From positions 186,327 to 210,326 of the forward strand of contig NZ_QOVA01000004.1 of assembly GCF_003332275.1 (NCBI RefSeq): a stretch of DNA of 24,000 bases. Direction: 5' to 3'. The DNA comes from Edaphovirga cremea (GTDB lineage Bacteria; Pseudomonadota; Gammaproteobacteria; Enterobacterales; Enterobacteriaceae). Under the pieces are notes generated by a model, which did no database searches, was not told the DNA's origin, and saw only the letters and a program-made list of their open reading frames with translations. The position numbers were made by a program, and so were the translations under genes. Below are positions 11,250 to 24,000 of this stretch, in pieces (within the stretch, counting starts at the first letter, position 1; the number at the start of each line of letters is the position of its first letter).

Positions 11250-11253
11250 CGAT

Positions 11254-11337: not shown

Positions 11338-12815
11338 ACGACAAGTCTTCCGCCCTCCTCGGCTGACAGCACAAATTGGAGGCCATCAGTCAGGGCAAGC
11401 TTATCCCCCAGATCAATCTTTCGTTTCTCTGGCAGCACCATCAGTCCGTCAATTCCTTCATTCACCAGCCACCACTGATCCTGATGGAAAAGAAAATAGC
11501 CCACCCGTTTTTTTTGTTCCGCGGTGGTTCTTTCATTCGGGGCAATTAACCTGTTTACATGCCACGCATAAAGCGATTGCCCGCTCCATACCATCAACCG
11601 GTGATCATCAGGCCGGAAACTTCCCGTTTTTCTCGATGAATACAGATTAAGAATCGGCAATTTTCCGGTGTAGGGCGTCCCGCAGTAGGGACAAACAGGT
11701 TGGGTTTTCCCGGAGAAAACGTACCATTTTTGCTCGCAGGTCGGGTTCTGGCAGGGCTGGATCAGGTCAACGGTTTTGACCAGCGCACTTTCCCACTCGT
11801 CAGCCGTCGGGCGTTTGGCTGGTTCATGCAAACCGGTAATAAACGCTTTCTCAAAAAGAGGCGTCAGATAGGGTCCGACGATGGTGTAAGGGATTTTCTG
11901 CGGATTAGCCCAAGGTAAAGAGGACGGACTGACCTGATTGAGTTTCACGGCGTTACTGTGATCGGTGGGATGCTCAATAAATAGCGCCTTTTCGCCCATC
12001 GAAAGCGCCTCATCACGCATCTCGTCATCCATATCGTGGATTTTCCCGCCGCGTAATGGATGGCGGTAAAAGAGGTACATATAGATGAGTACCGAGAGGG
12101 CGTGTCTGTCCGTCGTTATGCTCGGCAATATCCTCTGGCTGTCTTCCTTCAACAGGTGAGTGGTCTTCACCACTTCTGGCGCGATGAAATCCGGTGTTCC
12201 GACAACGTCCGGCGGATATTTACCCGGAACCACCAGGCCATCAATATCTATAATGCAGGCATGCCCCTGTTCTGGGTCAATCAGGACGTTTTTATAACTC
12301 AGATCGCTGTGGCACAGCCCAGCAGCATGCATGCGACGCACGGCGCGGGTTAACAGCAGGCACACCTTGAGGTAGTTGAGAATATTGCCGCGTTCCCTCG
12401 GGTCCAGAAACTTGTTTTGGTTATTCGCGCTGGCAAACCATTTTCCCTCTTTTTCACGGCCCTTGATCCCGAGGAAGTCGTCGTTTTTAGAACCGTACTT
12501 AAAGAAAAAGTGGCTTTGATACGTCGGCACCACGATACCAATTTTACCGTTGTGCTCAACGACACTCGTAGGCCAGCAGAATAACTCTTTCCAATATTCG
12601 CCGCCCGCCTGCTCAAAAATATTTTGGCGGTAGCGGCCTGTGATCATCGCGACGCGTTCTTTCGCCTGATCCGTTTGCGGCTTTTTATAGAAAGCGACGA
12701 CATAGGTTCTATCCGGAGAAAAGTAGACGTCCTTCATCGAACCGGAGCCGATAATCTCATCAACATACTGGACGGTTTCACCATCCTTTGTCGTGCAGGT
12801 AATAATATTTGCCAT
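11316..12815 (-). CDS. Eukaryotic-like Ser/Thr protein kinase with C-terminal Zn-ribbon and FHA-like domain (TerY-P triad kinase)
   Basis: Gly-rich loop IGSGSMKDVY, VAFYKK lysine, catalytic loop CHSDLSYKNVLI, DIDG (DFG equivalent), PDFIAPE (APE). C-x4-C-x14-C-x2-C Zn ribbon. C-terminus LVNEGIDGLMV...IDLGDKLALTDGLQFVL is FHA-like. ATG 12815 chosen; GTG 12824 is an alternative. Confidence 0.85.
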   Translation of the reverse strand: MANIITCTTKDGETVQYVDEIIGSGSMKDVYFSPDRTYVVAFYKKPQTDQAKERVAMITGRYRQNIFEQAGGEYWKELFCWPTSVVEHNGKIGIVVPTYQSHFFFKYGSKNDDFLGIKGREKEGKWFASANNQNKFLDPRERGNILNYLKVCLLLTRAVRRMHAAGLCHSDLSYKNVLIDPEQGHACIIDIDGLVVPGKYPPDVVGTPDFIAPEVVKTTHLLKEDSQRILPSITTDRHALSVLIYMYLFYRHPLRGGKIHDMDDEMRDEALSMGEKALFIEHPTDHSNAVKLNQVSPSSLPWANPQKIPYTIVGPYLTPLFEKAFITGLHEPAKRPTADEWESALVKTVDLIQPCQNPTCEQKWYVFSGKTQPVCPYCGTPYTGKLPILNLYSSRKTGSFRPDDHRLMVWSGQSLYAWHVNRLIAPNERTTAEQKKRVGYFLFHQDQWWLVNEGIDGLMVLPEKRKIDLGDKLALTDGLQFVLSAEEGGRLVVVQLISN

Positions 12816-12845
12816 AAAAATCACCAGTATTTGATACCAACGCGC

Positions 12846-14432
12846 TTACCAGGAGATGATGATCGTCCGGTCATCGTGATTCCCAGGCGAGAAGAAGTTC
12901 AACCACTCTGTCAGACGCTCCGCCGCAAGTGCGTCATCGCTCAGACACGGGGAAATCTCCGTAATCAATGCATCCCATTTATCCGCTGATTGCAGACCAT
13001 TGTCAGTCTCAAACAGCGGATCGGACACGCCATCGGTCATCAGTATCAGATGAGAAATATCCTTCCACTTGCCGATAATGATGCGCTTATTGAAATCCGC
13101 ATCCTTTACGGCGTCATTATCCAGAAAACGAGTTTGTCCGGCATATTCGCCACTGTCAGGCGTCCCAAGCAATCGGACTCTCCCGGCAGGGCCATATGCG
13201 GCAATGGCACCGTCGCCCATCCAGAATGAGGCGGCAAACAGGTCATCGCCGGACCTGAACGAGAGGGTGGCCAAAAGGGTAGTCGAATACGATTTTACTG
13301 GCTCATTGGCCTCAATCGCTTCGCTGTTCAGTTTGTTGACGGCAAGCCGTGCCGCTTTATGAAATAAATCGCCAAAGAAGGGGCCGACGGCTCGTTGCGA
13401 CTCGCTATCCCATTTATCGATCAAGGATTCTATTGGCAGGTCGTGTTCGCCATTCAACTGTTTGACCAGATAGTCCCCGACCGTCTTTGTCACGATTCGC
13501 GAACCTTCACGGGAGTTTTTCGCGCTCCCGGCTCCGTCGGCGACCAGCAGTACGCTCCAGCCATTCCCGGCATTGTGTGAGATAAAAAAGTCATCGTCGC
13601 GGAAGGAGCCAACATGCTCATGCGAGCGCCCCCGGCGACTGGCTGCTGCAATTCTAACCCCGCCGTCGACAATCATTTTGCTATCAATATTTGATTTGTA
13701 ATATCTGTCATCAGTCGGGGGATCGATGATTTTCCATAAACTGCGTGGATCAGGGTTCACAATAAGCAAAACAGCGGTGGTGTAGGAGATAGTTGGGTAG
13801 CAGGACCACGTAACACTCATCTCAATATCGCCACTTTTGGTTGGTGTTCCCGCAAGTGTTGAGGTGATGGGATCAAATGCAATCCCGATATCTTCTGGCA
13901 GGGAGACGCCCTGAATGGTGGCCGGGGTGCCATTATCCAGCATTATGTCTATTTCAGAGTGAAAGGGGATACCGACCCGGGCATTGGCGATATTGATTTT
14001 TGCCATTGGCTGACGGTGTTCAGGTACTTGCGTTGTCACTGGGCTACCCTCCAACGGGACTTGACCGGGTTTTAACGGGGGTGCCGCCATCGCTGACAGC
14101 AGTGTTTCCTCTGACTCGGTCTTTGCCGCCAGATCGTCAATAGCCTGCTGATTCTCTTCAGCGATATTCTGCCCCGCGCTGGCGTCGATCTCTTCAGGAT
14201 CAACGGGTGGCTCCTGAACGTTTTGCAGATCGTCAGGATCGGATAAATTCACCTCCGCTGCAGGTGTGGTTTTTTCTGTTTTAATGATAATTTTATTGAC
14301 GACTTCCTGAAGCAGATCGTCAATTTCAGTATCTTCACAGAGTGCGGTCAGGGTGGAATCAGGAATTGAAATGTTTCTCTCCTGAAGGAGACTCTTCAAC
14401 GCCGTTATGTTCCGGGCGGTTTTTGTTTCCAT
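12846..14432 (-). CDS. PP2C-family Ser/Thr phosphatase with long N-terminal extension (TerY-P triad phosphatase)
   Basis: C-terminal half has PP2C motifs: RRGRSHEHVGSFRDDDF, LLVADGAGSA, LILMTDGVSDPL, GNHDDRTIIISW. The N-terminal about 257 aa has an acidic/Pro-rich linker and an Ig-like segment (LPEDIGIAFDPITSTLAGTPTKSGD). The start codon overlaps the upstream stop (TAATG). Confidence 0.85.
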   Translation of the reverse strand: METKTARNITALKSLLQERNISIPDSTLTALCEDTEIDDLLQEVVNKIIIKTEKTTPAAEVNLSDPDDLQNVQEPPVDPEEIDASAGQNIAEENQQAIDDLAAKTESEETLLSAMAAPPLKPGQVPLEGSPVTTQVPEHRQPMAKINIANARVGIPFHSEIDIMLDNGTPATIQGVSLPEDIGIAFDPITSTLAGTPTKSGDIEMSVTWSCYPTISYTTAVLLIVNPDPRSLWKIIDPPTDDRYYKSNIDSKMIVDGGVRIAAASRRGRSHEHVGSFRDDDFFISHNAGNGWSVLLVADGAGSAKNSREGSRIVTKTVGDYLVKQLNGEHDLPIESLIDKWDSESQRAVGPFFGDLFHKAARLAVNKLNSEAIEANEPVKSYSTTLLATLSFRSGDDLFAASFWMGDGAIAAYGPAGRVRLLGTPDSGEYAGQTRFLDNDAVKDADFNKRIIIGKWKDISHLILMTDGVSDPLFETDNGLQSADKWDALITEISPCLSDDALAAERLTEWLNFFSPGNHDDRTIIISW

Positions 14433-15472
14433 TAACCTTTCCCTCGGCTGACATCAAAATCTGACTTACCGCTATTCTCACTGAAGGAGATATTTTTATC
14501 ACACCACGGACAGATCACCGTTTCTGGCCCATTGATACAGAGTAATTTCCCGCATGAACACACGGCAAATGCCGTGGCATTGCCACAATGAGGGCAACCC
14601 GGGGCGCCGTGCAGCTCGCTGGTATTCACCTGAATAGTGGAGGCTGACTCATCGCTCCAGGCAAAATATTCATCATCTATTGGAAAACAGCCTGTCAGAT
14701 TAAAACCATGGATATTGAGTTTGAAGTCCAGCGACGAGAGATTGACATTCGGACGTTCATACTTCATCAGATACGGGCGTCTGGATTTGTTGCAACGGCC
14801 TACAAACGTGACGCAGGATTCATCATAAGCCCGGGTTACCTCATCCTTCGCCAGCCTGACAATATGATCGGTTTTACTTAAAAGAGGCGGGGACTCTTCG
14901 CCAACGCTGCGGCTATGCGCCACCACGGAGGCTGTTATCCATTTGATGAAGCGGGTGAAATCCCCTTCCTGTGCTTCGGTAAAGAGCAGCACGTTTTCCG
15001 TCAATTGGCGCAGGATATTCAGGTCGGCTGATGAGCCCAACCCAATCGCTATCATATTAACCTTACGGGCATAATGTTCCTGCCAGCGTTTTATATCTGG
15101 TGCAACATCGTCCGTTGGACGACCATCGGTCAGGAGATAAACGACGGGTTTCCAATCCCCTTTACGCTCTGCGGTGGTTTTCCTGACCTGTCGATCAATT
15201 TGCTGGGATAACACATTCAGCGCACTCCCCAGGCTGGTGCCACCGCCAATGGGCAGGCGAGGAGGATAGAAAGCGGCAACCTCAACCAATGGCACGATCG
15301 TTTTTGCAACACCCGCAAATGCAATGACAGAAATCCAGGCCGTCTCCAGCGCGTGGGGATCCTTTTTCAAATCATTGACGATCATTTGCAAGCCGTCATT
15401 CATCTTCTTCAGATTTTCCCCGATCATGGACTCGGAACAGTCGAGTACGAAGAAAATGGGCAGTCTTCTCAT
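14432..15472 (-). CDS. terY: TerY-like von Willebrand A (vWA) protein with Cys-rich Zn-ribbon C-terminal extension (terY3-like position)
   Basis: MIDAS motif LDCSESM, GGGTSLG, LLTDGRPTDD. Shares the MRRLP N-terminus and F(I/F)KW(I/V)(T/S)ASV block with the two short TerY paralogues. C-terminal C-x2-C-x8-C-x-C-x4-C-x8-C-x2-C cluster. Confidence 0.85.
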   Translation of the reverse strand: MRRLPIFFVLDCSESMIGENLKKMNDGLQMIVNDLKKDPHALETAWISVIAFAGVAKTIVPLVEVAAFYPPRLPIGGGTSLGSALNVLSQQIDRQVRKTTAERKGDWKPVVYLLTDGRPTDDVAPDIKRWQEHYARKVNMIAIGLGSSADLNILRQLTENVLLFTEAQEGDFTRFIKWITASVVAHSRSVGEESPPLLSKTDHIVRLAKDEVTRAYDESCVTFVGRCNKSRRPYLMKYERPNVNLSSLDFKLNIHGFNLTGCFPIDDEYFAWSDESASTIQVNTSELHGAPGCPHCGNATAFAVCSCGKLLCINGPETVICPWCDKNISFSENSGKSDFDVSRGKG

Positions 15473-15541
15473 AACAAAACCCTCATCAAGCGTTCATTCC
15501 TTTTAACATGACGTGGTGTGTACCTGGCCAGCTAACAGTAG

Positions 15542-15572
15542 AGGCAAAGCCCCTGGTTTCGGGTCTTTGCCT
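15542..15572 (-). other. Stable intercistronic hairpin between terY and the TerY-P triad (no U-tract)
   Basis: On the minus-strand RNA: AGGCAAAG-A-CCC-GAAACCA-GGG-G-CUUUGCCU (8 bp + 3 bp around one mismatch). It starts 5 nt after the terY stop, within a 105-nt gap. The following sequence is not U-rich. Confidence 0.5.
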
Positions 15573-15577
15573 GTTGA

Positions 15578-16216
15578 CTACAGTACCAGCTGTATTTCAG
15601 GCGGTGGTGGCGGGAGATTCTCTTGTCCAGATGTCACGCCTGCACTGGAACTTCCTGATGAAACACTTGCCGAGACCCATTTGAAGAAGCCGGAAAAAGC
15701 GGTTGAATCCAGCGTCTCAAGCGCGACAACCTGTGATGTCAGTTGCTTAAGATGTTCATGTTTGGCTTTCGGACCGACTGCACACGCGATTATCGAGCCA
15801 AACGCGCGCTTTTTGACTTCCTTAATGGCTTCGCCATAGGCGTAGGTGTCTGATGGCGTGCCGTCGGTCATGAGGAAGACCAGAGGACGCCAGTCGCCTT
15901 TTTCATCGCCATCTGAGCGTTTGATGTCCCTGTCTACGCAGTGGAGAAGACATTCAAGTGCGGCACCGGTAAATGTTCCACCTGCACTCGGAACGGTGAT
16001 GTCAGAAAACTGAAAATCTTCGAGCGCGGTGAGCGTAATAAATTCGCGGGCTTCGTTGTCAAAGGTAATGATGGAGATATGTACACTTTCTAACGCGTAG
16101 GGATCCTGTCTCAGGGCGCTCAGCATGGCCAGAATGCCCACATTAACCGCATGTATGGACTCACCACGCATCGAGCCTGACGTATCGATCAACAGATAAA
16201 CCGGTAACCTTCTCAT
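15578..16216 (-). CDS. terY: TerY-type vWA protein (212 aa; terY2-like position)
   Basis: MRRLPVYLLIDTSGSM (DxSxS MIDAS), GGTFTG, FLMTDGTPSD, KGDWRPLV, FFKWVSASV. The start abuts the terX stop (TAAATG). C-terminal PPPPPEIQLVL. Confidence 0.9.
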   Translation of the reverse strand: MRRLPVYLLIDTSGSMRGESIHAVNVGILAMLSALRQDPYALESVHISIITFDNEAREFITLTALEDFQFSDITVPSAGGTFTGAALECLLHCVDRDIKRSDGDEKGDWRPLVFLMTDGTPSDTYAYGEAIKEVKKRAFGSIIACAVGPKAKHEHLKQLTSQVVALETLDSTAFSGFFKWVSASVSSGSSSAGVTSGQENLPPPPPEIQLVL

Positions 16217-16858
16217 TTAGATGTAACCTTTCAGATGAGTGACGAACGTATCTGATTCTGAAGGTTCTCCAATAGCGTTCAGTTTCCAGCCGGAATCCTC
16301 TCTGACCAGCTCAGCAAAGAGCATGGAACACTGATTATTAAACGCAGGGCCGCCTGACAGATCAAACCGTGCCATTTCGACATTTTTGGCATCGACCGCT
16401 CTGATGTAGGCATTCTGGACTTTGCCAAAATGCTGCTGAAGTTCGCGTCCGTTATAGATCTGGACAATAAAAACGATTTTTTCGTATTTCGGATCCAGTG
16501 TATTCAGATGGACAATGATTTGTTCGTCATCGCCGTCACCTGCGCCGGTGCGGTTATCACCCGTGAGCCAGATTTTGCCGGATTTGTGTTTGAGACTATT
16601 AAAAAAAATGATATCGCCATTCACAAGGGTAGATCTGCCATTTTCCACATCACCCAGATCGGTGACTTTCCCTTGCGCATTACACAGAAAAGCACTCACA
16701 TCGAGATCGTACTCAGCGGCTTTTTTGCCGAATAATCCCCCCATGAATCCTTTCTTCTCTTCATTGATGTCCCAGCCCAGGCCAATCGTGACAGAGGAGA
16801 GATCGAATTCATTTTTCCTGAGGCTGACTCCTTGCCCTTTACGCAAACTAACTGACAT
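16217..16858 (-). CDS. terX: TerD-family stress protein (TerX by position between terY genes)
   Basis: MSVSLRKGQGVSLRK...IGLGWD N-terminus and Ca-binding signature GDNRTGAGDGDDEQI, typical of the TerD/TerZ/TerX family. AAGGAG SD in the 20-nt gap upstream. Confidence 0.88.
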   Translation of the reverse strand: MSVSLRKGQGVSLRKNEFDLSSVTIGLGWDINEEKKGFMGGLFGKKAAEYDLDVSAFLCNAQGKVTDLGDVENGRSTLVNGDIIFFNSLKHKSGKIWLTGDNRTGAGDGDDEQIIVHLNTLDPKYEKIVFIVQIYNGRELQQHFGKVQNAYIRAVDAKNVEMARFDLSGGPAFNNQCSMLFAELVREDSGWKLNAIGEPSESDTFVTHLKGYI

Positions 16859-16878
16859 AACTACTCCTTGGTTATGAT

Positions 16879-17517
16879 TTAGAGAACCACATTTACTTCT
16901 GGTGGCGGTGGAGGTAAATCATCCAGCCCGATAACCTCTTTTTTACCGGACTCCACTTTCTGACTTCCTACGGAAATACTGGCAGAGACCCATTTGAAAA
17001 ACGCCTTAATGGATGAGGAGTCCGCTGTATCCAGCTGAAGAACGATTTCAGTAATTTCTTGCAAAACTTTCGTTTCGGCGGCATGCCCTGCGGCACAAGC
17101 CACGACAACGCCTGTGCGTGCCGCTTTGAAGGCACTGACTCCCTGGCGGTAGTCATCCGTCGGTGAACCATCGGTCATGATGAATACCAGTGGACGCCAG
17201 TCACCTTTTGTCTCGGCGGTGGTTTTCTGTACTTCGCGTTCGATACAGGCTGAAACCAGAGACAGGGCTTCACCCAGGGCAGTGGTGCCCCTCGCCACAA
17301 GGTCGGGTAATTTGAAATTGAGGAGGTCGGTCAGGGGAACGGCCTGGCGAGCGGCGGTATCAAAAGTAATAACAGAAACATAAGCTGTTTCAAGCGCGTA
17401 GGGATCTTGTCGAAGCGTCGATAACAACATTTGAACGCCGTTTTTAACGGCTTCAATCGGCTCGCCTGTCATCGAGCCCGATGTGTCAAGTACCAGATAG
17501 ACCGGGAGTCTTCGCAT
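16879..17517 (-). CDS. terY: TerY-type vWA protein (212 aa; terY1-like position next to terW)
   Basis: MRRLPVYLVLDTSGSM, GTTALG, FIMTDGSPTDD, KGDWRPLV, FFKWVSASI. C-terminal PPPPPEVNVVL. Confidence 0.9.
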   Translation of the reverse strand: MRRLPVYLVLDTSGSMTGEPIEAVKNGVQMLLSTLRQDPYALETAYVSVITFDTAARQAVPLTDLLNFKLPDLVARGTTALGEALSLVSACIEREVQKTTAETKGDWRPLVFIMTDGSPTDDYRQGVSAFKAARTGVVVACAAGHAAETKVLQEITEIVLQLDTADSSSIKAFFKWVSASISVGSQKVESGKKEVIGLDDLPPPPPEVNVVL

Positions 17518-17573
17518 GTAATTTCCCTACTATTATTAGTGGTGATATTTTTGACATAATAATTCATTTGGTC

Positions 17574-17603
17574 GTTATCTCAACAGAAATAGCAAGAGGT
17601 CAA
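17574..17603 (-). promoter_or_regulatory. Candidate promoter for the terY-terX-terY(-triad) unit
   Basis: Minus strand TTGACC (17603-17598), 18-nt spacer, GATAAC (17579-17574). It lies downstream of the terW terminator and about 55 nt upstream of the terY ATG. Weak -10; motif match only. Confidence 0.25.
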
Positions 17604-17649
17604 CGGTTCGAAACAGGGAGTATTGCCGAAGTAAAAGGGGTAACTGAAA

Positions 17650-17703
17650 GGAAAAGCAAAAGAAATCAAGCCGTGCCTGAATACAAGGATCCCTGCACGG
17701 GCT
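17650..17703 (-). terminator. Probable rho-independent terminator after terW
   Basis: Minus-strand RNA: AGCCCGUGC...GCACGGCU (8 bp with one bulged C, 18-nt loop), starting 8 nt after the terW stop. It is followed by UGAUUUCUUUUGCUUUUCCUUUC. The large loop lowers confidence. Confidence 0.5.
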
Positions 17704-17711
17704 ATTGGATT

Positions 17712-18185
17712 TTACACCCCTTTCTTTCTGGTCGGGAGGCCGCTTATCAACGTATCAATACAATTGATCACCAGCATTTCAACGGCCTCACTCCGGGTGG
17801 TGCCACTCAGCCGGGACAATTTATCTATCTTGCGCAAGGCTGACATTTTCAGTGAAAGCGAAACAGCCTTCTTTTTATCTTTATCCAGAATAACCCTGCT
17901 GACTATTTCACCTGTTTTAATCTCTGCGTTGGCAGTAAGCGCTTCACTCATGCGGCGTAATGTTTTTTTATCAAGCTGGCCGGGGGTAACGAGCTGATAA
18001 GAGTGTGTGGCCTTGCTGTACTTTATTTCCGCAGAGTAGGAGTCTCTGAGCTCCTTCAGGGCCCGGGTTAATGTCGGCTCTGAACAGTCAAGCGACGAAA
18101 TAATTCGGGTTGCAGAAACCGGTTTTCCTGAGCCCAGAAGATTTGCCAACGTGAAGATTCGGGCCTGTCGCGTACTGAGTTGCAT
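17712..18185 (-). CDS. terW: TerW, winged-helix DNA-binding regulator of the ter cluster
   Basis: 157 aa. MQLSTRQARIFTLANLLGSGKPVSATRIISSLDCSEPTLTRALKELR is a DeoR/HTH_11-type wHTH. Size and position (between terY and the biosynthetic genes) match terW of R478/O157-type ter clusters as I recall them. Confidence 0.8.
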   Translation of the reverse strand: MQLSTRQARIFTLANLLGSGKPVSATRIISSLDCSEPTLTRALKELRDSYSAEIKYSKATHSYQLVTPGQLDKKTLRRMSEALTANAEIKTGEIVSRVILDKDKKKAVSLSLKMSALRKIDKLSRLSGTTRSEAVEMLVINCIDTLISGLPTRKKGV

Positions 18186-18258
18186 AATTAGTTACTGCCT
18201 GCATTTATGTTCAATGGTTCTATGGACTGAAAGATAAACATGACAACCTCCAGTTCTT

Positions 18259-19206
18259 TTACGTAACCGTCATGAGGCGGACACCATTTTGCGCCTGCTC
18301 CGCAGAGATACCGTAAACCTGTGCACGAGCGAGGATCCCTGAGGCCCAGCGCCGGTGGGTTGCGGGTTCACACATGGCTCCCTGTGATTTAAAGACCGCC
18401 TGAGTGGAGTTCAGGATCCGCAGTGCGTCAGCATAGTCGATCGACGAGACCATCAGGGCCTGCTCTATTTTACTGATTTGATTAGGGTGAATGGCAGTTT
18501 TCCCCACCAGCCCGTGCGCCATATCCAGCGCCAGCTCCCTGTCCATAATCTGATGGTCGTCGATATGCTCACAGACCGGCGCAGTCAGGGCAAAATCACG
18601 GGAGGCAAAAATCGCCACCAGCATTTTGATCACATAACCCATCGGTCCGTCATACAGGGTGAAGTGACGTGTCCTTCTGAGGGAAATGACATTCATTAGG
18701 TCGTTGCCCCCAATGCGTAACGCAATAATCCGCTGGTGGCAGGGATGAGCCTGAAGCGCAGTCGCGAGTTCGCGCATTTGCACGACGTCGAAAACCTCTT
18801 CGGTTTCCAGTGTCGGCATTATACAAAGCTGGGTATCCCGAACAATCTCCCACCAGCCAGGCAAGGAGGCCAGTGTGAATTTCGGCAGTACCAGACCGTC
18901 TATAGGACTCAGGTCCATATTGGCGGCCAGCATTTGCCCCATCTCTATGTGTCGCGGGCGAACAAACACCAACGGCCAGTGGCTGTTGCCGTTGTTGGCC
19001 TTCGCCTGGGCAAGGATTGCCAGGAGTTCACGCAGATTGCTCAACGCAGTGGGGATATCGGATTCACTCACTGCGTCTTCGAGACAGATAACCAGGGAAC
19101 GCAATCCGTCAATTTTGTTGTTCAGAATTGCCTCGGCAATGTCTGTACGGGTCGCGGGCATATATAACGTTGCACCCAGATGCCATGGGGAGAGCCGTTT
19201 ATTCAT
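18259..19206 (-). CDS. HpcH/HpaI aldolase / citrate lyase beta (CitE)-like lyase
   Basis: 315 aa. ICLEDAVSE (metal-binding E/D), LRIGGNDL, GKTAIHPNQI, all characteristic of the CitE/HpcH TIM-barrel family. The start overlaps the upstream stop (TGATG). Confidence 0.85.
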   Translation of the reverse strand: MNKRLSPWHLGATLYMPATRTDIAEAILNNKIDGLRSLVICLEDAVSESDIPTALSNLRELLAILAQAKANNGNSHWPLVFVRPRHIEMGQMLAANMDLSPIDGLVLPKFTLASLPGWWEIVRDTQLCIMPTLETEEVFDVVQMRELATALQAHPCHQRIIALRIGGNDLMNVISLRRTRHFTLYDGPMGYVIKMLVAIFASRDFALTAPVCEHIDDHQIMDRELALDMAHGLVGKTAIHPNQISKIEQALMVSSIDYADALRILNSTQAVFKSQGAMCEPATHRRWASGILARAQVYGISAEQAQNGVRLMTVT

Positions 19207-20291
19207 CAGTGCACCTTTTTGATAATAGTGACCGCACGGTATTGACCTATATCGTCATCAACTTCAGTAATGGCGATGCCTTTTTCACGGGCGAGATAGA
19301 CCAGCAAAGCCACGTCAGGATCATTGACGGACCGCACAAGAACATGGTCAGGAACGCGTCGCAAGACAGCCCGTGTTGCCTCTGCAATGCCCGGCTTGAT
19401 TCGGTTGATGCTGGTAATCTGATACCTGCTCGCCAGGGCGTCGATCACATGTTCACTCTGTTTTTTAAGATACGCTTTCTGTCGCGGATCCCATTCACTG
19501 GCCGCGATGTGCGAGAGGTTTAATGTGTCACGGAATTCCGTCACCTTGTCGACCATTTTTCGGCTGCATTCGTACTGAAGGAGGTGGTCGCAAATGACGC
19601 AGCCGTGCAAACCTTCCGACGACCAGATTGAGCGCGAAATCAAACCAGAGACCGGAGCCCCCATGATACCGAAAGGTATTAACCAGTCATCATCACTGGC
19701 AGCGAGCCAGGAGCATCCGCAGGGATCAGCCAGCACAACCAGGCGGGGCTGGGCAGGGTAACCGGGACGATCCTTCAGGGAGCGGATCAGTTCACCCGTA
19801 ATCGCTCCCTTTCCCGTCCAGCCATCGACAAACACAATGCCTTCTGTGCCATGACGTTTTTCAATCCAGTCCAATGCTATCGTATCAATACCACGGTCAC
19901 GAATGATACTGATACCATAGTGATAGGATTCCTTGCCCATCGCGCGCAGCGTCTGGTGAAGCATTACGCCAAGGGGCACGCCGGCACGAACAAGGCTCGT
20001 CAGCACCACCGGCGTGTTACCGAAGCGCTGGATCAGCGCCTTAGCCAGCATGACCACTTCTTTTGCCAGGCGTTCAGAGCCGAGCGTCAGCGCCTGTGCG
20101 AATAAATCCAGATGCCATGCTGTCGGTTCCGGTTCCTGACTCAACATGTCGGAATAATGCCGTGCACCTGACTGAATGAGCTGTTCCTTCAGCGCCACTG
20201 GGGTCATTTCGATTTCCACCGGGTTAAGCAGAAAATGGACATCTTCGGGCAGGTACGAACCTGAAAAAGGGATGTAATCACGGTCGCGCAT
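19206..20291 (-). CDS. Ter-associated phosphoribosyltransferase-like protein (PRTase_1/StiP-type) with C-terminal PELOTA/L7Ae-like domain
   Basis: Start set at ATG 20291 (MRDRDYIPF...), with GGAG 9 nt upstream and 1 nt after the HAD stop. The ORF-track start at 20357 would overlap HAD by 65 nt. Divergent PRPP loop IVFVDGWTGKGAITG. The C-terminal tail VLVRSVNDPDVALLVYLAREKGIAITEV resembles Pelota/L7Ae-fold modules. Confidence 0.72.
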   Translation of the reverse strand: MRDRDYIPFSGSYLPEDVHFLLNPVEIEMTPVALKEQLIQSGARHYSDMLSQEPEPTAWHLDLFAQALTLGSERLAKEVVMLAKALIQRFGNTPVVLTSLVRAGVPLGVMLHQTLRAMGKESYHYGISIIRDRGIDTIALDWIEKRHGTEGIVFVDGWTGKGAITGELIRSLKDRPGYPAQPRLVVLADPCGCSWLAASDDDWLIPFGIMGAPVSGLISRSIWSSEGLHGCVICDHLLQYECSRKMVDKVTEFRDTLNLSHIAASEWDPRQKAYLKKQSEHVIDALASRYQITSINRIKPGIAEATRAVLRRVPDHVLVRSVNDPDVALLVYLAREKGIAITEVDDDIGQYRAVTIIKKVH

Positions 20292-20292
20292 A

Positions 20293-21066
20293 TTATTGTT
20301 CTCCGAAAATTTTGCTGGTGATTTTCTCAGCGAACTGGCTCTGACGGGGTAAGCCATACCATGTGCAGAGTTTCATAAAGCGATGATCGCTCAGACTGTC
20401 ACCCAACCCGATAACGGGAAAAACACCCCGTTCTTCGCGAAGTTTATTCAGCAAATAAGTCACGGCCAAACCTTTTTCTACCGGTACCGGCAGCCAGGCG
20501 ATATTGTTGCTGTTGCGGTGAATATAAAAACCGTCGGTTGAGAAAATCTGCTCAATTTCATCACCAATGGCATATAACTCATCGAGTCTGGTGCTGTCCC
20601 GATGCTTCATGACCAGATAAATCGGCGTATCGTTATATTCGTAGTTTATCCGCGCCCATCCATTGATATTCCTTGCTTCCATTAACTCGGTAATCTGACG
20701 CTGCATGGAAATGAGTTTCTCTGCGTAAGGCTTCAGGCTCTCCAGCATCAGCGTTTTCCACCCTTCATCAGGCTGGTTCTGAGCATTGAGAATCACTGCA
20801 CCATGTGTCGTCACCGACCATGAGCGAAAGGGAATGGTAACCCGTCTGATCTCCTCGGTTCCCCGGGCGGTCACCGGGATAAGTTCTGCCTGCTCCAGCA
20901 TCCAGTCCACCAGCATGGATTGTTCTTCAGTCATGAAACTGCGCGGTTCCATGCTGCGATCCAGTGCGCCGGTACGGAAGGGGTCAAGCCGCAGCTCATC
21001 CACCATTTTTCGCCGTGTCTGAAAAAGGGTATCGTCCAGGTCGGAAAAAATGACGGGTTTATTCAT
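20293..21066 (-). CDS. HAD-superfamily phosphatase
   Basis: Start at ATG 21066 (MNKPVIFSDLDDTLF), overlapping the upstream stop by 8 nt (ATGAATAA). The ORF-track TTG at 21081 is less likely. HAD motifs I DLDDT, II VTARG, IV GLGDSLSD. Confidence 0.8.
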   Translation of the reverse strand: MNKPVIFSDLDDTLFQTRRKMVDELRLDPFRTGALDRSMEPRSFMTEEQSMLVDWMLEQAELIPVTARGTEEIRRVTIPFRSWSVTTHGAVILNAQNQPDEGWKTLMLESLKPYAEKLISMQRQITELMEARNINGWARINYEYNDTPIYLVMKHRDSTRLDELYAIGDEIEQIFSTDGFYIHRNSNNIAWLPVPVEKGLAVTYLLNKLREERGVFPVIGLGDSLSDHRFMKLCTWYGLPRQSQFAEKITSKIFGEQ

Positions 21067-22201
21067 AGCAAACGATCTCAATAGAAGGAGCCACTTTACT
21101 TAGCGCCTCCAATAAAACAGGGTCGACACTTTCTTCCGGCGTTTCAATGCATAACAGGATGCGGTCAAAACGCTGATGTGCGACGTTATAAACAAAATTA
21201 GGGATGCCGAGCCCATAGTTGTCGGTGAACGCAATGGCGGACTGGATGGCAAAACCCGTCGCAATCGGAGAACGGGTCGTCGAACTGTATTTTACGTCCG
21301 CCCCTTGCTTCTCCAGACGCTCAGCCAGTAAAAACGGTTCCCAGACAAATTCGCCGGTTCCAAGTACCAGTAACTTTTCGCCAGCCTCAACGTGAATGGA
21401 TCTGCCCAGATCGCCTGCTGGGGCTGCCATGCCGAGTCGTCCCCAACTCTGCCTGCCGGTGACAGGGACGTTTCCGGACGCGGTGACGTTGACCTGCGGC
21501 ATGATGGGAACAGGGGCCGCCGGATTTCTTTCCCAGTGCCAGTCGCCCTGAACCAGCGAAACGGTTTGCACCGGCAGGGGACATAGCTCGGCGATAGCGT
21601 TGCCACTCCAGTCGGTCAATGTGACGGCAATAACCTGTCGAATATGTTTCAGTCCGGCCATATCGCGTAATGCGGCGAGCAAATTAATGCAGGTATTCCC
21701 CGTGGTGGCCTCATCATCGATCAGAACAACGGTCTGCGCCTCAAGCACACGACGGCGAAGCTCGGTATCGCCAGGTAAGTAGATGAGGTGATCTGTGGCA
21801 TGACTGTGGTCTTCTTTGAATTCGCACAGAAGATCGCCTTCCACCGGATGACGGGTGGAGGTCAGAAAGACAGGATCAGCAACCCGCGGCCTGACTTCGT
21901 CAAACACACCGGCCCCCAACCCTACCGCGGTTTCTGCCATACCAATAAACAGCACCGGACCTTCAGGAATCGAGGGGATCTGTTCGGCCAATTGCCGATA
22001 TATCGACCGCATCACATGCGGGGATACCGGGATATGCCTGCCAAGGACTTTACTGACGAACAAAAATGCGCGTTTGGGATTGCGTCGTTCTGCAATATCA
22101 AACAGGTCATCAAGGGAGATCTCCCCCCTGGTTGGGGTCACGCTCAGGGTTCCGCATGAGAGTATACGGCGGTAGACAGGATGGTCGGTAGAGATGTTCA
22201 T
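21059..22201 (-). CDS. Ter-associated type-I phosphoribosyltransferase (PRTase_2 plus C-terminal TRSP-like domain)
   Basis: 380 aa. Canonical PRPP-binding loop VVLIDDEATTGNT. The N-terminal half is PRTase-like; the about 150-aa C-terminal domain is of unknown function. The start is 6 nt after the ATP-grasp stop. Confidence 0.85.
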   Translation of the reverse strand: MNISTDHPVYRRILSCGTLSVTPTRGEISLDDLFDIAERRNPKRAFLFVSKVLGRHIPVSPHVMRSIYRQLAEQIPSIPEGPVLFIGMAETAVGLGAGVFDEVRPRVADPVFLTSTRHPVEGDLLCEFKEDHSHATDHLIYLPGDTELRRRVLEAQTVVLIDDEATTGNTCINLLAALRDMAGLKHIRQVIAVTLTDWSGNAIAELCPLPVQTVSLVQGDWHWERNPAAPVPIMPQVNVTASGNVPVTGRQSWGRLGMAAPAGDLGRSIHVEAGEKLLVLGTGEFVWEPFLLAERLEKQGADVKYSSTTRSPIATGFAIQSAIAFTDNYGLGIPNFVYNVAHQRFDRILLCIETPEESVDPVLLEALSKVAPSIEIVCYE

Positions 22202-22207
22202 GGTGAC

Positions 22208-23272
22208 TTATTCCTGCTGAAGAAGGTTGGTGAGCGTCGGGTCGTAGCTGATGACGTCGGTAACGGAACGGACCATCGCCGGGGAAAATGCACTGCTGGC
22301 CTCATCCGCGATATCCTGCTGGCTCATGAGACCCAACTGGCGCATGGCGAATAAGCCTGGCAGGTTAACGCCACTGTAGCGGGTATAGCCAATGCCACCT
22401 GATGGTCGCATATTGATTTCGAGCAGAACCGGTTGCCCGGATGCGTTGTTACGGGTCTGAACATTCACCAAACCATCTGCCTGCATCACTTCTGCACAAG
22501 AAATCGCCAGTTCATAAGCCTCCCCGGCGTTTTCCAGATATTGAAATGCGCCCTCTTTACGGCGGGCTACCGCGGCCAGTACTTTGCCTCGTTCAACGAG
22601 CATATCGACAGAGTACTCGGGGCCAGACAGATAAGGCATCAGCACCAGGGGCTCAAAGATCCCTGCCTGTTCAAGGGCAGAGATATACAGGTGAGCGTTC
22701 ACCTTGCGGCTGTCCGGGTGAGTGAATGCCGCCATCGGTGAAACGGTCTCATCAAACCGCCAGAACCCCATACCATAAATCCCCCTGACAGGTTTTATGC
22801 ACATTGGTTGTGTCCCAAAGGGAGAAAGGGCGAGCAGACGGCGTAATTCATCCACGGACTCCACGAGAATAGACGGCACGACCGGCAGCCCTTTTTTCTC
22901 CATGAACTGGGCGAAACTCACTTTATCATCTGCCAGTTCACATTGTGGCGCGCCAATGGCCCCGGTCGTCAACTTCGCACCGGAGTTTTCAATCTCCTGG
23001 CGGTGAGATTCGAACCATAGGCAGTTACGACCGGTGTGGATGGCCTGAATACCGAGTTGGTCGACGATCGACAGAATAAAAGAGAGGCGTTGATCGTCTT
23101 CTTTCGGCTCAAGAAGAGAGTGATCAGCCTGCGACAGAATTTCATTACGCTGATTGCGATGAGAGGCAATAACGCTAACGTCCGCCCCTTTTTTTTGAGC
23201 AAAAGCTTTAATTCCCTGAATGATATCTCGCTGGGAAGACAGTCCTTCCATGAGCCAAATTTTATGCGTCAT
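22208..23272 (-). CDS. ATP-grasp family ligase
   Basis: 354 aa. CIKPVRGIYGMG (ATP-binding Lys/Gly loop), SGPEYSVDML, LLEINMRPSGG (Mg/ATP E-x-N motif). First gene of the minus-strand biosynthetic unit. Confidence 0.85.
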   Translation of the reverse strand: MTHKIWLMEGLSSQRDIIQGIKAFAQKKGADVSVIASHRNQRNEILSQADHSLLEPKEDDQRLSFILSIVDQLGIQAIHTGRNCLWFESHRQEIENSGAKLTTGAIGAPQCELADDKVSFAQFMEKKGLPVVPSILVESVDELRRLLALSPFGTQPMCIKPVRGIYGMGFWRFDETVSPMAAFTHPDSRKVNAHLYISALEQAGIFEPLVLMPYLSGPEYSVDMLVERGKVLAAVARRKEGAFQYLENAGEAYELAISCAEVMQADGLVNVQTRNNASGQPVLLEINMRPSGGIGYTRYSGVNLPGLFAMRQLGLMSQQDIADEASSAFSPAMVRSVTDVISYDPTLTNLLQQE

Positions 23273-23324
23273 CGGTATAAATTCCCGTCTTGGGCTGAGT
23301 AGTTAAGTGAAGAGAACTGCAGTG

Positions 23325-23353
23325 AGTCTATGTACGTAAATTTTGCATGTCAA
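23325..23353 (-). promoter_or_regulatory. Candidate sigma70 promoter of the ATP-grasp...terW operon (TTGACA-N17-TAGACT)
   Basis: Minus strand: perfect -35 TTGACA (23353-23348), exactly 17 nt of spacer, TAGACT (23330-23325). It lies about 50 nt upstream of the ATP-grasp ATG. Motif match only. Confidence 0.45.
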
Positions 23354-23366
23354 TCATATTATGATT
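23352..23366. promoter_or_regulatory. Perfect 7-1-7 palindrome AATCATA-T-TATGATT overlapping the -35 (candidate operator)
   Basis: Read directly. Its last two bases are the first two of the minus-strand TTGACA. The related palindrome ATCATGAT plus ATGATT lies at 23522-23535, in the terZ-side promoter. Confidence 0.4.
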
Positions 23367-23506
23367 CCTCTGTCACGAAATTCAAATTTCACAAAATTGT
23401 AATAATCTCACGACAAAAATCGCCAAAGTCTTGAAGATTGAGAAAATAAAAACCGTTTAATATCAATATATTGTATGTATTGTAAAAATAACCATCAAAA
23501 ATGGCC

Positions 23507-23534
23507 TTGATCGAGAACTTCATCATGATATGAT
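23507..23534 (+). promoter_or_regulatory. Candidate sigma70 promoter of terZ (TTGATC-N16-TATGAT)
   Basis: TTGATC 23507-23512, 16-nt spacer, TATGAT 23529-23534, about 68 nt upstream of the terZ ATG. The spacer and -10 contain the palindrome ATCATGAT (23522-23529). Confidence 0.4.
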
Positions 23535-23602
23535 TTTTTTGTTCACGGGTTTTGGTGTAAAAAGTGTTGTTCTTTTCAATACCTCTTTTAAGGAATTCAA
23601 AT

Positions 23603-24000
23603 ATGGTTTCATTAAGGAAAAACGAAACGGTATCGCTCAGCAAACAATCTTCTGCCCTGAGCCAGCTTCAGTTTGGTCTGGGTTGGGATCCGATTAAGAA
23701 AAAAGGATTATTTGGCGGTCTTTTTGGCGCAAGCAGTTCCATTGACCTCGACGCAGGTTGTGTATTGCTGGATAAGTCCGGGAATAAAATCGATACCATT
23801 TGGTTCCGTAAACTCAAGTCCGACTGCGGCTCCGTTGTACATAGCGGCGACAACCTTACCGGTGAAGGTGACGGTGATGATGAAGTCATCCGCGTCGACC
23901 TGAACCGTTTACCCCAGAATGCCGAGTATCTGGCATTCACGGTAAACAGTTTCCGCGGTCAGACATTCAATGACGTTGATAACGCATTCTGCCGCGTGGT
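23603..24000 (+). CDS. terZ: TerZ (TerD-family tellurite/stress resistance protein), 5' partial, runs off the window
   Basis: Not in the ORF track because no stop falls inside the window. My translation from ATG 23603 (AAGGA SD 8 nt upstream): MVSLRKNETVSLSKQSSALSQLQFGLGWDPIKKKGLFGGLFG...GDNLTGEGDGDDEVIRVDLNRLPQNAEYLAFTVNSF. That is a TerD-family N-terminus with the Ca-binding GDNxTGEGDGDDE motif. Called terZ from its divergent position. Confidence 0.9.
   Translation, partial: MVSLRKNETVSLSKQSSALSQLQFGLGWDPIKKKGLFGGLFGASSSIDLDAGCVLLDKSGNKIDTIWFRKLKSDCGSVVHSGDNLTGEGDGDDEVIRVDLNRLPQNAEYLAFTVNSFRGQTFNDVDNAFCRV

Follow-up and report, generated by a model that had tools for sequence, protein, structure and literature searches.

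The locus at 18259–23272 of the window (the whole 24,000-nt stretch of DNA that was analysed) is read here as a copy, on a Yersiniaceae chromosome, of the biosynthetic operon associated with ter genes, and this reading, taken together with the proposed route to a ribosyl metabolite, is reasonably probable. The Ter-associated module was already described in 2012, and the window copy is another instance of it, not a new system; its closest named relative is Yersinia entomophaga. An earlier note on this DNA credited the module to Anantharaman, Iyer and Aravind (2012), correctly so as relayed by PMC11994780, PMC8115787 and PMC7824862. The published prediction is that a nucleoside-like metabolite is formed by the PRTases and the HAD enzyme and is sensed by TerD/TerB (PMC7824862, PMC11994780).

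By ORF listing and sequence reading, five intact genes were found on the minus strand. Pfam searches, and for the third gene a PDB match, identified them as an ATPgrasp_Ter gene (22208–23272, 354 aa), a PRTase_2+TRSP gene (21059–22201, 380 aa), a HAD-IIB phosphatase gene (20293–21066, 257 aa), a StiP (formerly PRTase_1)+PELOTA_1 gene (19206–20291, 361 aa) and a CitE-like C-C lyase gene (18259–19206, 315 aa). A 6-nt gap (22202–22207, TAA gtcacc ATG) separates the ATP-grasp and PRTase_2 genes, the PRTase_2 and HAD genes overlap by 8 nt (ATGAATAA, 21059–21066), the HAD and StiP genes are parted by 1 nt at 20292, and the StiP and lyase genes overlap by 1 nt (TGATG at 19206). All four junctions were thus as the earlier note had described them. 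Its five domain assignments agreed with Pfam and with the fold and profile checks, and the catalytic motifs that it quoted for the five proteins were all present in the translations, on columns invariant across phyla.

The ORF lister gave longer starts for two of the genes, TTG at 21081 for HAD and ATG at 20357 for StiP, but the shorter starts were preferred because four observations supported them. Nearly all of 120 StiP homologues were 357–361 aa long; the E. coli RefSeq calls gave genes of 774 nt and 1080 nt, whose junctions again were an 8-nt overlap, a 1-nt gap and a 1-nt overlap; independent calls at a 98–99% identical locus (L083) gave 354, 380, 257, 361 and 315 aa with identical junctions; and the Shine-Dalgarno-like sequences GGAG and AGGTG lie 9 and 5 nt ahead of the short HAD and StiP starts, respectively.

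Junctions of ≤10 nt recurred across 80 loci of many phyla (PRTase_2/HAD in 55/72, HAD/StiP in 55/76 and StiP/lyase in 48/72), so the tight junctions are no local accident. The ATP-grasp/PRTase_2 junction was this short in only 10 of 42 pairs of the same set. Among 48 well-flanked loci (Proteobacteria, Melainabacteria, Myxococcota, Planctomycetota and others), PRTase_2 was present in 46, HAD in 47 and the lyase in 46, and the ATP-grasp gene in 30. The evolutionary, coupled core is therefore PRTase_2-HAD-StiP with the lyase usually next, and ATP-grasp is a facultative, loosely attached member. The five-gene unit of the earlier note was accordingly borne out for this core, usually with the lyase, but not for ATP-grasp as a fixed member. 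The annotation of the Ter cluster of the jumbo phage vB_AbaM_ME3 listed no module enzyme other than PRTase_2, HAD and StiP, which are accompanied there by vWA, membrane and TerD-like genes.

In the window itself, the view that the five genes form one coupled unit was supported by a single upstream sigma-70-like promoter, by terminator-like sites not exceeding shuffle expectation, and by RNA-seq of Pectobacterium versatile, in which the equivalent genes were treated as a five-gene operon (PMC7843439). The promoter was located by a consensus scan at 23325–23353 on the minus strand (TTGACA, 17-nt spacer, TAGACT; 10/12 matches), some 50 nt ahead of the ATG at 23272, and its TTGACA recurred together with CATAGACTC blocks in most of 12 aligned Enterobacterales intergenic sequences. 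A palindrome scan detected AATCATATTATGATT at 23352–23366, which abuts and overlaps the –35 hexamer, is an exact match to ATCATAnTATGAT and is the best conserved block of this alignment. A second copy, ATCATGATATGAT (23522–23534), with one mismatch to the pattern, lies towards terZ in the divergent region, within the conserved block ATCATATCATGAT, found in 11 of the 12 sequences. These two conserved palindromes around the promoter region are probably TerW operators, a putative assignment made from the sequence; palindromic TerW sites were proposed in the equivalent Pectobacterium intergenic region, where PhoP co-regulates the orthologous operon with terZABCDE (PMC7843439). TerW would repress the operon by binding to the palindrome.

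The neighbouring genes belong to the Ter system. A terW-like winged-helix regulator gene (17712–18185, minus strand), whose product is 74% identical to E. coli TerW and gave weak HTH matches, lies 73 nt downstream of the lyase gene; terW directly follows the lyase in 14 of the 48 well-flanked loci, all from Enterobacterales. Divergently, the start of terZ (TerD family; 23603–24000, plus strand) was found, with an ATG at 23603 encoding MVSLRKNETVSLSKQ and a frame continuing past the window edge. At the L083 locus, the order beyond the terZ start is TerD-TerD-TerB-TerC-TerD-TerD. Further downstream, on the minus strand at 11316–17517, lie Ter accessory genes for vWA (TerY), TerD-family (TerX), vWA, vWA+TerY_C, PP2C phosphatase and Ser/Thr kinase proteins, labelled from the window ORFs and translations and by Pfam on the matching L083 genes. 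TerD-family genes were present within 10 kb in 41 of the 48 loci, which confirmed the association of the module with ter genes; its co-occurrence with the TerY/PP2C/kinase triad, also raised earlier, was weak (5–7/48). Besides ter genes, the recurrent neighbours were TerC-like DUF475, TerD-trypsin fusions, AIM24 and Na/Ca exchangers, and no further biosynthetic enzyme recurred among them.

Some database records of such genes are labelled 'adenine/guanine phosphoribosyltransferase', 'carbamoyl-phosphate synthase large chain' and 'citrate lyase subunit beta', as would be expected for ordinary nucleotide-salvage and citrate-lyase housekeeping genes that lie together by chance. Distribution and family assignment refute this explanation, to which we give virtually no weight. 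An equivalent locus was found in 1016 of 5426 complete E. coli genomes (about 19%), on islands and plasmids, and terABCDE in 1014 of them; it was also found in about 2,500 plasmids, and phage copies were rare (2 distinct phage sequences in 50,697 records). The Pfam families are dedicated to the Ter-associated module, NCBIfam housekeeping equivalog matches were all far under cut-off, and the gene order beside ter genes is conserved across phyla. No model in PADLOC v2 matched any of the five module proteins.

The PRTase_2+TRSP protein matched PF15609 (5e-61) and PF12500 (2e-23) in Pfam. Its AF2 model (pLDDT 75.6) showed an N-domain matching APRT, UPRT, HGPRT and XPRT structures with probability 1.0, and the PRPP loop, D162-D163-E164...G168-T170, was invariant. 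The fold of this domain and of the StiP N-domain is common to type I PRTases (APRT, HGPRT, UPRT, OPRT) and PyrR, and the PRPP loop of PRTase_2 is canonical, as in type I PRTases. Unlike in these enzymes, however, a TRSP domain is added in PRTase_2 and a PELOTA domain in StiP, the sequence similarity is limited to the PRPP loop at E of 0.007 or worse, and the distribution of the module is accessory, not housekeeping. For the TRSP domain (about residues 276–378, alpha/beta), neither structure nor sequence comparison gave a relative in the PDB.

The StiP+PELOTA protein matched PF11202 (8e-88) and PF15608 (1e-27) in Pfam. RefSeq and the description of Pfam PF11202 use the name 'cysteine protease StiP family protein', which derives from Reichert et al. 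2013, who, as cited in PMC11994780, reported the Acinetobacter baylyi family member as a protease that is required for both tellurite resistance and normal morphology. The window protein is a full-length match to PF11202 and so belongs to the same family, and Acinetobacter loci (L034) carry the same ATP-grasp/PRTase_2/HAD/StiP/lyase module. Nevertheless, the protease assignment conflicts with the fold, the residue conservation and the natural fusions found here. In the AF2 model (pLDDT 81, pTM 0.86), the N-domain matched HGPRTs and the C-domain L7Ae/Snu13/15.5K, each with a probability of about 1.0, and a protease fold was absent from the matches of the structure search. There was no conserved cysteine across 59 diverse members; the best column held Cys in only 41 of them and Ala, Thr or Val in the others. 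The label is hence unsupported. D156, G157 and W158 were invariant across phyla, and the invariant residues mapped to the PPi and PRPP loops, VDGWTGKG of StiP aligning with VDDEASTG of PRTase_2. Natural fusions were found as PRTase_2-TRSP-StiP-PELOTA and HAD-StiP-PELOTA. It is very improbable, in our judgement, that StiP is a cysteine protease and the cluster a proteolytic stress-response unit.

The StiP loop carries one acidic residue where type I PRTases carry two, and because of this StiP may bind rather than catalyse. PyrR is a PRTase fold that doubles as an RNA-binding regulator, and it matched the PRPP loop of PRTase_2 weakly in sequence. StiP-PELOTA might likewise work on or through RNA, either as a PyrR-like regulator that would bind RNA once the product of the module fills its PRTase-fold pocket or as an enzyme phosphoribosylating the 2'-OH of RNA or nucleotides. 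Such a role, which we regard as possible but unlikely, would suit the non-canonical PRPP loop, the match of the C-domain to K-turn-binding proteins (weak by sequence), and the PELOTA-domain residues K299, E304, R307, R311 and R312, which are invariant or nearly so. These basic residues could, however, equally bind ribose-phosphate. Neither an Rfam family nor a structured leader was found at the module, where about 50 nt are left for the inferred 5' UTR and 0–6 nt for the internal junctions. StiP is always embedded between phosphatase and lyase, and fusions of it to PRTase_2 or HAD are frequent; metabolic assembly therefore fits better than an RNA role.

The HAD protein matched, over its full length and with 34% identity, the 'Trehalose phosphatase' of P. 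aeruginosa (PDB 6D3V/6D3W/6CJ0, E=6e-40). The two share the HAD catalytic motifs, and the motif residues D9, D11, D12, T66, K198, D223 and D227 were invariant. According to work attributed to Cross et al. in 2018, the P. aeruginosa homologue reportedly hydrolyses trehalose-6-phosphate (T6P) in vitro and is said to have been studied as a stand-alone trehalose enzyme. A related extrachromosomal P. aeruginosa enzyme was assayed as a TPP and used in inhibitor work (PMC6838324). Weak family matches also pointed to sugar-phosphate HAD-IIB enzymes, S6PP and MPGP, of which S6PP was the only, sub-threshold, match in the Pfam search. Still, it is quite improbable that the HAD protein is a genuine T6P phosphatase and the module part of trehalose or sugar-phosphate stress metabolism. 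There was no Trehalose_PPase (OtsB) match in Pfam and no OtsB structure at E<1 in the PDB. Since by Pfam both the window protein and the crystallised enzyme fall outside the OtsB/Trehalose_PPase family, the natural substrate may be a compound other than T6P; in vitro, promiscuity is common among HAD phosphatases. The TreYZ and TreS routes to trehalose bypass T6P. It is by these routes that P. aeruginosa trehalose is described as made (PMC7549927). Among the recurrent neighbours in 80 loci there was no T6P synthase, and the HAD gene is locked between two PRTase genes and sometimes fused to one. On plasmid CP109686.1, the gene for a protein 99.6% identical to the crystallised enzyme itself lies between PRTase_2 and StiP and adjoins TerD/TerB/TerC genes, a Ter-module context that was not mentioned in the consulted papers citing the P. 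aeruginosa enzyme. The earlier statement that no substrate, product or phenotype had been shown stands for the product, none being reported in the literature searched; for substrate and phenotype it was too strong, given the enzyme crystallised as trehalose phosphatase (6D3V/6CJ0) and the reported A. baylyi StiP phenotype.

The lyase matched PF15617 (C-C_Bond_Lyase, 1e-110) in Pfam. Its profile, built from 47 homologues, matched citrate lyase 3QLL of Yersinia pestis over the full length (5e-17), and also acyl-CoA lyase beta chains, malyl-CoA lyase and CLYBL. HpcH aldolases matched at about 6e-4 only, so that of the earlier label 'HpcH/CitE-like' the CitE half was upheld and the HpcH half was not. 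The CitE motifs LED(43-44), PK(108-109), E134, GGxD169 and KxxIHPxQ(236-243) were invariant, with E43, D44, K236, H240, P241 and Q243 on invariant columns. The window lyase shares the TIM barrel of the CitE-like acyl-CoA lyases (3QLL, malyl-CoA lyase, CLYBL, CitE), with LED, PK, the metal-binding Glu/Asp and KxxIHPxQ. It nevertheless forms a separate Pfam family, and its NCBIfam scores were far under the cut-offs for RipC (40 vs 375 bits) and CitE (16 vs 443 bits). No conserved CoA ligase or transferase was found near the module, unless ATP-grasp plays that part. The ATP-grasp protein matched PF15632 (ATPgrasp_Ter, E=1.4e-39), and its profile from 29 homologues matched the CPS-like ATP-grasp 2PN1 (2e-18), the CPS large subunit, the L-amino-acid ligase BL00235 and PurD; K117, K160, E219, D223, E285, N287 and R289 were invariant.

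From these assignments we infer every step of the chemical route proposed here. PRTase_2 would use PRPP to ribosylate a nucleophile, giving a 5'-phosphoribosyl compound. The PRTase-like domain of StiP might add a second ribosyl-phosphate, or hold a ribose-phosphate intermediate via the PELOTA domain, and HAD would strip the 5'-phosphate to release the riboside. The non-sugar part would be made or decorated by the CitE-like lyase through CoA-thioester chemistry and, where present, by ATP-grasp through acyl-phosphate chemistry. The product could be a diffusible signal or effector, read by the membrane-associated TerD/TerB/TerC proteins in envelope, xenobiotic or phage stress. To make E. coli K-12 resistant to tellurite, terZ-F are sufficient (PMC8115787), and the module is therefore not needed for tellurite resistance in that setting.

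Compared with the known Ter-associated modules, the window copy differs in details only. It is chromosomal, in a Yersiniaceae genome, and adjoins yhiN; it is without the DUF4236 gene that lies between lyase and terW in E. coli and Enterobacter plasmids; and at the DNA level it is about 68% identical to the E. coli and plasmid copies, so that megablast finds nothing. At the level of organisation, the known modules (E. coli O157-type tellurite island, IncHI2, Klebsiella ter plasmids and Pectobacterium versatile OA04_37930-37890) agree with the window copy in their five Pfam families and in the order and strand of these; all of them diverge from terZABCDE and have terW downstream. The Pectobacterium versatile module has the same layout as the window (PMC7843439). 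The genes of the E. coli tellurite island follow one another as in the window, with identical junction geometry, and the module proteins share 62–77% amino-acid identity with those described here.

The five minus-strand genes at 18259-23272 encode an ATP-grasp protein, a PRTase_2-TRSP protein, a HAD, a StiP-PELOTA protein and a lyase, and judged by their sequences they are almost certainly another copy of the known Ter-associated biosynthetic module. By Pfam search of the called ORFs, the ATP-grasp protein (22208-23272) matched ATPgrasp_Ter (PF15632, E = 1.4e-39, over the gathering score), the PRTase_2 protein (21059-22201) matched PF15609 (5e-61) and a C-terminal TRSP domain (PF12500, 2e-23), the StiP protein (19206-20291) matched PF11202 (8e-88; the StiP family was formerly named PRTase_1) and PELOTA_1 (PF15608, 1e-27), and the lyase (18259-19206) matched C-C_Bond_Lyase (PF15617, 1e-110). 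The sole Pfam match of the HAD (20293-21066) was S6PP, which was sub-threshold (16.5 bits vs a cut-off of 20.3 bits). Each Pfam family matched by the ATP-grasp, PRTase_2, StiP and lyase proteins was created for this gene neighbourhood. Together with structure and profile searches, these matches confirmed the domain calls of the earlier note, and the catalytic motifs it described as intact were indeed so, with no variation across phyla in the catalytic residues of any of the five families. The ATP-grasp profile was nearest to CPS-like ATP-grasp domains, an L-amino-acid ligase and PurD, and scores against the NCBIfam housekeeping equivalogs (CPS-like, RimK, CitE, RipC, MPGP) were all far under cut-off. 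The alternative that these are ordinary purine/pyrimidine salvage or citrate lyase enzymes with housekeeping distribution was ruled out by these family scores and by an accessory distribution, since islands and plasmids carrying the module were detected by blastn in only 1,016 of the 5,426 complete E. coli genomes; the reading of a dedicated module therefore stands.

With megablast the region had no match in either the E. coli genomes or the plasmids, so the more sensitive blastn was needed. With it, the module was also found at ∼68% DNA identity in 2,497 plasmid records (Klebsiella, Escherichia, Enterobacter, Salmonella, Pseudomonas and others). In the same E. coli genome set terABCDE was present in 1,014 of 5,426, and ter genes accompany the module on IncHI2 plasmids, Klebsiella virulence-type plasmids and the E. 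coli O157-type island. In the tellurite island of E. coli the module genes are ordered as in the window, with terZABCDE diverging from them and terW downstream, and the proteins are 62-77% identical to those of the window. E. coli and Enterobacter plasmid copies carry a DUF4236 gene between the lyase and terW (L001, 9732-10940; also the loci L017, L052 and L062), whereas the window lacks it and the lyase-terW spacing is 73 nt. The window is chromosomal, its left half being gor-rlmJ-prlC-rsmJ-uspA-uspB-pitA-yhiN. Among named relatives, Yersinia entomophaga comes closest (86% and 82% identity). In the metagenomic copy L083, which has the full terZABCDE, the ter island is 98-99% identical, but its flank consists of ABC transporter genes and not yhiN (window 9946-11316 vs L083 17513-21086). 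Such a near-identical island with a different chromosomal flank in a close relative suggests that the ter island moves.

In the window, terZ starts at 23603 on the strand opposite to the module, and 16217-16858 holds a TerD-family gene. The region after terW (11316-17517) encodes TerY (vWA), TerD-family, vWA and vWA+TerY_C proteins, a PP2C phosphatase and a Ser-Thr kinase. None of the five module proteins matched a PADLOC v2 model, and in the 11316-17517 set the kinase alone was matched, weakly.

The five consecutive genes and each junction described earlier were borne out by reading of the reverse strand. The ATP-grasp and PRTase_2 genes are separated by a 6-nt gap (TAA-gtcacc-ATG, 22202-22207), PRTase_2 and HAD overlap by 8 nt (ATGAATAA, 21059-21066), HAD and StiP are separated by 1 nt (TAA-t-ATG, 20292), and StiP and the lyase overlap by 1 nt (TGATG, 19206). 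A mechanical ORF list offered longer alternative starts for HAD (TTG, 21081) and StiP (ATG, 20357). Sequence comparison identifies the short starts as the right ones, because StiP homologues are nearly all 357-361 aa, the E. coli genes as called in RefSeq agree in length and also show the overlap/gap/overlap pattern, independent gene calls in L083 (354/380/257/361/315 aa) give identical junctions, and Shine-Dalgarno-like sequences (GGAG and AGGTG) lie upstream. Among 80 fetched loci, junctions of ≤10 nt were found for PRTase_2/HAD in 55 of 72, HAD/StiP in 55 of 76 and StiP/lyase in 48 of 72, and for ATP-grasp/PRTase_2 in only 10 of 42. The coupled operon claimed earlier is thus upheld, in that stop and start codons overlap or abut and the pattern is conserved among relatives; translational coupling is predicted from this layout. 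Terminator-like sites showed no excess over shuffled sequence.

A sigma-70-like promoter (TTGACA-17-TAGACT, 23353-23325) was found ∼50 nt upstream of the ATP-grasp gene. When the regions between the divergent terZ and ATP-grasp genes of twelve Enterobacterales were aligned, two palindromes of the form ATCATAnTATGAT stood out as strongly conserved, and they are shared across Enterobacterales families. One copy (23352-23366, with an exact match at 23353-23365) abuts and overlaps the -35 hexamer of this promoter, and the other (23522-23534) has one mismatch. They were found by a custom scan and the cross-species alignment, a generic inverted-repeat tool having missed them. Palindromic sites protected by TerW have been described at the corresponding positions in E. 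coli and Pectobacterium (PMC7843439), and the two window copies are probably TerW operators; the simplest reading is that TerW occupancy would repress the module promoter. The five uncharacterised genes of Pectobacterium versatile are reported to form an operon that PhoP represses together with terZABCDE (PMC7843439).

To survey the neighbourhood, 59 diverse StiP proteins (33-56% identity) served to fetch 80 loci on one-genome-per-species contigs from Gamma-, Beta- and Alphaproteobacteria, Desulfovibrio, Melainabacteria, Myxococcota, Planctomycetota and Campylobacterota, and the ORFs were scored with the window proteins and E. coli Ter proteins. The order PRTase_2 > HAD > StiP > lyase was almost universal. 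Among the 48 loci flanked on each side by 8 kb or more, HAD was present in 47, PRTase_2 and the lyase in 46 each, and ATP-grasp in 30. TerD-family genes occurred within 10 kb in 41 of the 48, TerB in 24, TerC in 23 and TerW in 14. The expected co-occurrence with ter genes was therefore found, and far beyond chance: TerD was observed in 85% of loci vs a percent or two expected per 20-kb window, on a rough reckoning from a handful of TerD genes among thousands. Co-occurrence with the TerY/PP2C/kinase triad was weak, at 5-7 of 48 distant loci. Other recurrent neighbours were TerC-like DUF475, TerD-trypsin fusions, AIM24 and Na/Ca exchangers; around distant copies the partners were of Ter type only, with no further recurrent biosynthetic enzymes.

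The composition of individual loci varied around this pattern. PRTase_2-HAD-StiP-lyase stood beside ter genes with no detectable ATP-grasp in Xenorhabdus and Erwinia (L008-L012, L056), as well as in many Burkholderia and Sphingomonadaceae loci, and in the Melainabacteria loci L065, L066 and L071 the lyase was followed by an additional HAD and a pair of ATP-grasp genes.

A search of 1.84 billion representative proteins gave 883 StiP clusters, among which natural fusions of the forms PRTase_2-TRSP-StiP-PELOTA and HAD-StiP-PELOTA exist. The fusion proteins listed are P0218, P0232, P0240, P0244, P0267 and P0220 (720-921 aa) and P0139 and P0166 (∼630 aa), with the HAD part confirmed for P0139. These fusions indicate, at the sequence level, that PRTase_2, HAD and StiP may work as a physical unit. 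StiP was found in only 2 distinct phage sequences of 50,697 records. In the Ter cluster of jumbo phage vB_AbaM_ME3 (L085, 5168-8059), the module enzymes annotated are PRTase_2, HAD and StiP only, with no lyase or ATP-grasp annotated, and the cluster adjoins vWA, membrane and TerD-like genes; it is a minimal version of the module. The evolutionary core of the module consists of two PRTase-fold proteins and a HAD phosphatase, to which the lyase is nearly always attached, the ATP-grasp being facultative. The minimal set for reconstitution is accordingly PRTase_2, HAD and StiP, with the lyase and ATP-grasp as add-ons. The 509-aa StiP variant P0176 was examined as a lyase fusion and is not one.

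In the PRTase_2-TRSP model (pLDDT 76), the N-terminal domain matched APRT, UPRT, HGPRT and XPRT with a probability of ∼1.0. Its PRPP loop is canonical, VLIDDEATTGNT, with D162, D163, E164, G168 and T170 invariant. For the TRSP domain (residues ∼276-378) no structural or sequence relative was detected; invariant R255, E284, R310 and D327 are ascribed to it. A conserved E-x-H-S-H motif was also observed in PRTase_2 at residues 130-134 (E130, H132 and H134 invariant, S133 nearly so).

The AF2 model of StiP (pLDDT 81, pTM 0.86) matched in Foldseek hypoxanthine-guanine PRTases with its N-terminal domain and L7Ae/Snu13/15.5K RNA-binding proteins with its C-terminal domain, both with a probability of ∼1.0. 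The StiP loop, VDGWTGKG vs VDDEASTG in PRTase_2, has a single acidic residue and departs from the two-acid canonical form. In a weak profile-profile alignment (E = 0.017), used solely for placing the PRPP loops, the invariant residues of StiP fall on the PPi and PRPP loops of PRTase_2. As summarised in PMC11994780, Acinetobacter baylyi StiP was reported as a protease required for tellurite resistance and normal morphology (Reichert 2013). Acinetobacter loci bear the full module (L034). Among 59 diverse StiP members no conserved catalytic cysteine was found, the best column being Cys in 41 and the other columns in ≤17, and the confident Foldseek matches, all HGPRT-type PRTase or L7Ae-like, included no protease fold. 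Given the PRTase and L7Ae-like folds and the loop-aligned invariant residues as well, the "cysteine protease StiP" assignment appears poorly supported by sequence and model. The propagated label hides a second PRTase, and the name is now spreading into interpretation: a 2025 Bacillus altitudinis study counted "only three of the five" module genes in its strain (PMC11994780), because StiP, annotated as a cysteine protease, was not recognised as the second PRTase.

The L7Ae-like fold of the C-terminal domain is also what speaks for the main rival to a biosynthetic role, an RNA-directed or PyrR-like regulatory function of StiP-PELOTA. However, Rfam gave no match in the whole window at gathering thresholds or in 17400-24000 at permissive thresholds, so no riboswitch or leader points to a metabolite, and StiP is fused with the metabolic enzymes PRTase_2 and HAD; we consider the regulatory function unlikely. 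Under the preferred biosynthetic reading, StiP would be the second PRTase of the pathway.

The HAD motifs are invariant across phyla, and in 47 of the 48 well-flanked loci the HAD gene was found between PRTase_2 and StiP. The protein matched P. aeruginosa structures annotated as "trehalose phosphatase" (PDB 6D3V/6D3W/6CJ0, E = 6e-40). The gene of the crystallised protein (99.6% identity) was located at 10992-11750 of L002, the P. aeruginosa plasmid CP109686.1, between PRTase_2 and StiP and beside TerD, TerB and TerC genes. By this gene context, the structurally characterised P. aeruginosa "TPP" is identified as the HAD of the Ter module. Hydrolysis of trehalose-6-phosphate (T6P) was reportedly attributed to this P. 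aeruginosa homologue by Cross in 2018. The extrachromosomal P. aeruginosa enzyme was assayed as a trehalose phosphatase (PMC6838324). The window HAD, for its part, had no match to Trehalose_PPase (OtsB, PF02358) or to any OtsB structure at E < 1, and no T6P synthase (OtsA) was found among the recurrent neighbours in 80 loci. Since the HAD is not of the OtsB family and has no accompanying T6P synthase, since trehalose in P. aeruginosa is described as made by TreYZ/TreS (PMC7549927), and since the HAD gene is locked between the PRTases and sometimes fused to them, it is doubtful that the trehalose assignment reflects physiology. One enzyme of the pathway thus already has a crystal structure, filed under another function.

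The lyase had been called HpcH/CitE-like. A profile of 47 diverse lyases matched the CitE-family structure 3QLL at 5e-17 over the full length, and also acyl-CoA lyase beta chains, malyl-CoA lyase and CLYBL, whereas HpcH aldolases were matched at only ∼6e-4. The CitE signature motifs are invariant in the family. The CitE half of the call was thus retained and the HpcH half dropped; the lyase is assigned to the CitE type from its sequence, and its family membership suggests that it may act on a CoA thioester.

As relayed in PMC7824862 and PMC11994780, the 2012 Anantharaman model has PRTases and a HAD making a signal for TerD/TerB that derives from a nucleoside or nucleotide, the version with five genes has in addition a second PRTase, an ATP-grasp and a TIM-barrel enzyme, and the favoured predicted product is a pyrimidine-derived ribonucleoside. 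In Klebsiella work the cluster was still "putative biosynthetic", and terZ-F alone gave tellurite resistance (PMC8115787). The earlier statement that no substrate, product or phenotype had been shown holds for the product, of which no report was found in the searched literature, but is too absolute for the rest, as a HAD structure exists and a StiP phenotype has been reported. In the general chemistry that we propose, PRTase_2 would ribosylate some nucleophile with PRPP, StiP would perform a second PRPP-dependent step or hold a ribose-phosphate intermediate with its PELOTA domain, and HAD would take off the 5'-phosphate. The CitE-like lyase and ATP-grasp would make or tailor the aglycone by thioester and acyl-phosphate chemistry, and TerD/TerB would read the product. 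We give this chemistry an even chance. As the identification of the module is close to certain, identification and chemistry taken overall are somewhat favoured.

The window presents no new system, and the question is no more testable here than with the E. coli, Klebsiella and Pseudomonas copies. The by-products of the analysis are the crystal-structure link, the evidence against the names "cysteine protease" and "trehalose phosphatase", the three-gene core, the CitE-type lyase assignment and a conserved operator-promoter arrangement with putative operators. Identity of the product would explain the phage, colicin and stress resistance of Ter systems. A more specific and distinctly improbable proposal, taken as one joint claim, is that the core trio, with CitE-like CoA-thioester and ATP-grasp acyl-phosphate chemistry, builds a previously undescribed PRPP-derived messenger. 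It might be a di-ribosyl riboside, or else a nucleotide or CoA-like compound with an O- or N-linked ribosyl group. The acceptor would be a ribose 2'-OH, belonging to a nucleotide or to the end of an RNA and presented by StiP through its L7Ae-like domain, and TerD/TerB would read the messenger and switch a TerC membrane response in phage or envelope attack. Such a messenger would be unlike the NTP-cyclase messengers of CBASS, CRISPR type III and Thoeris.
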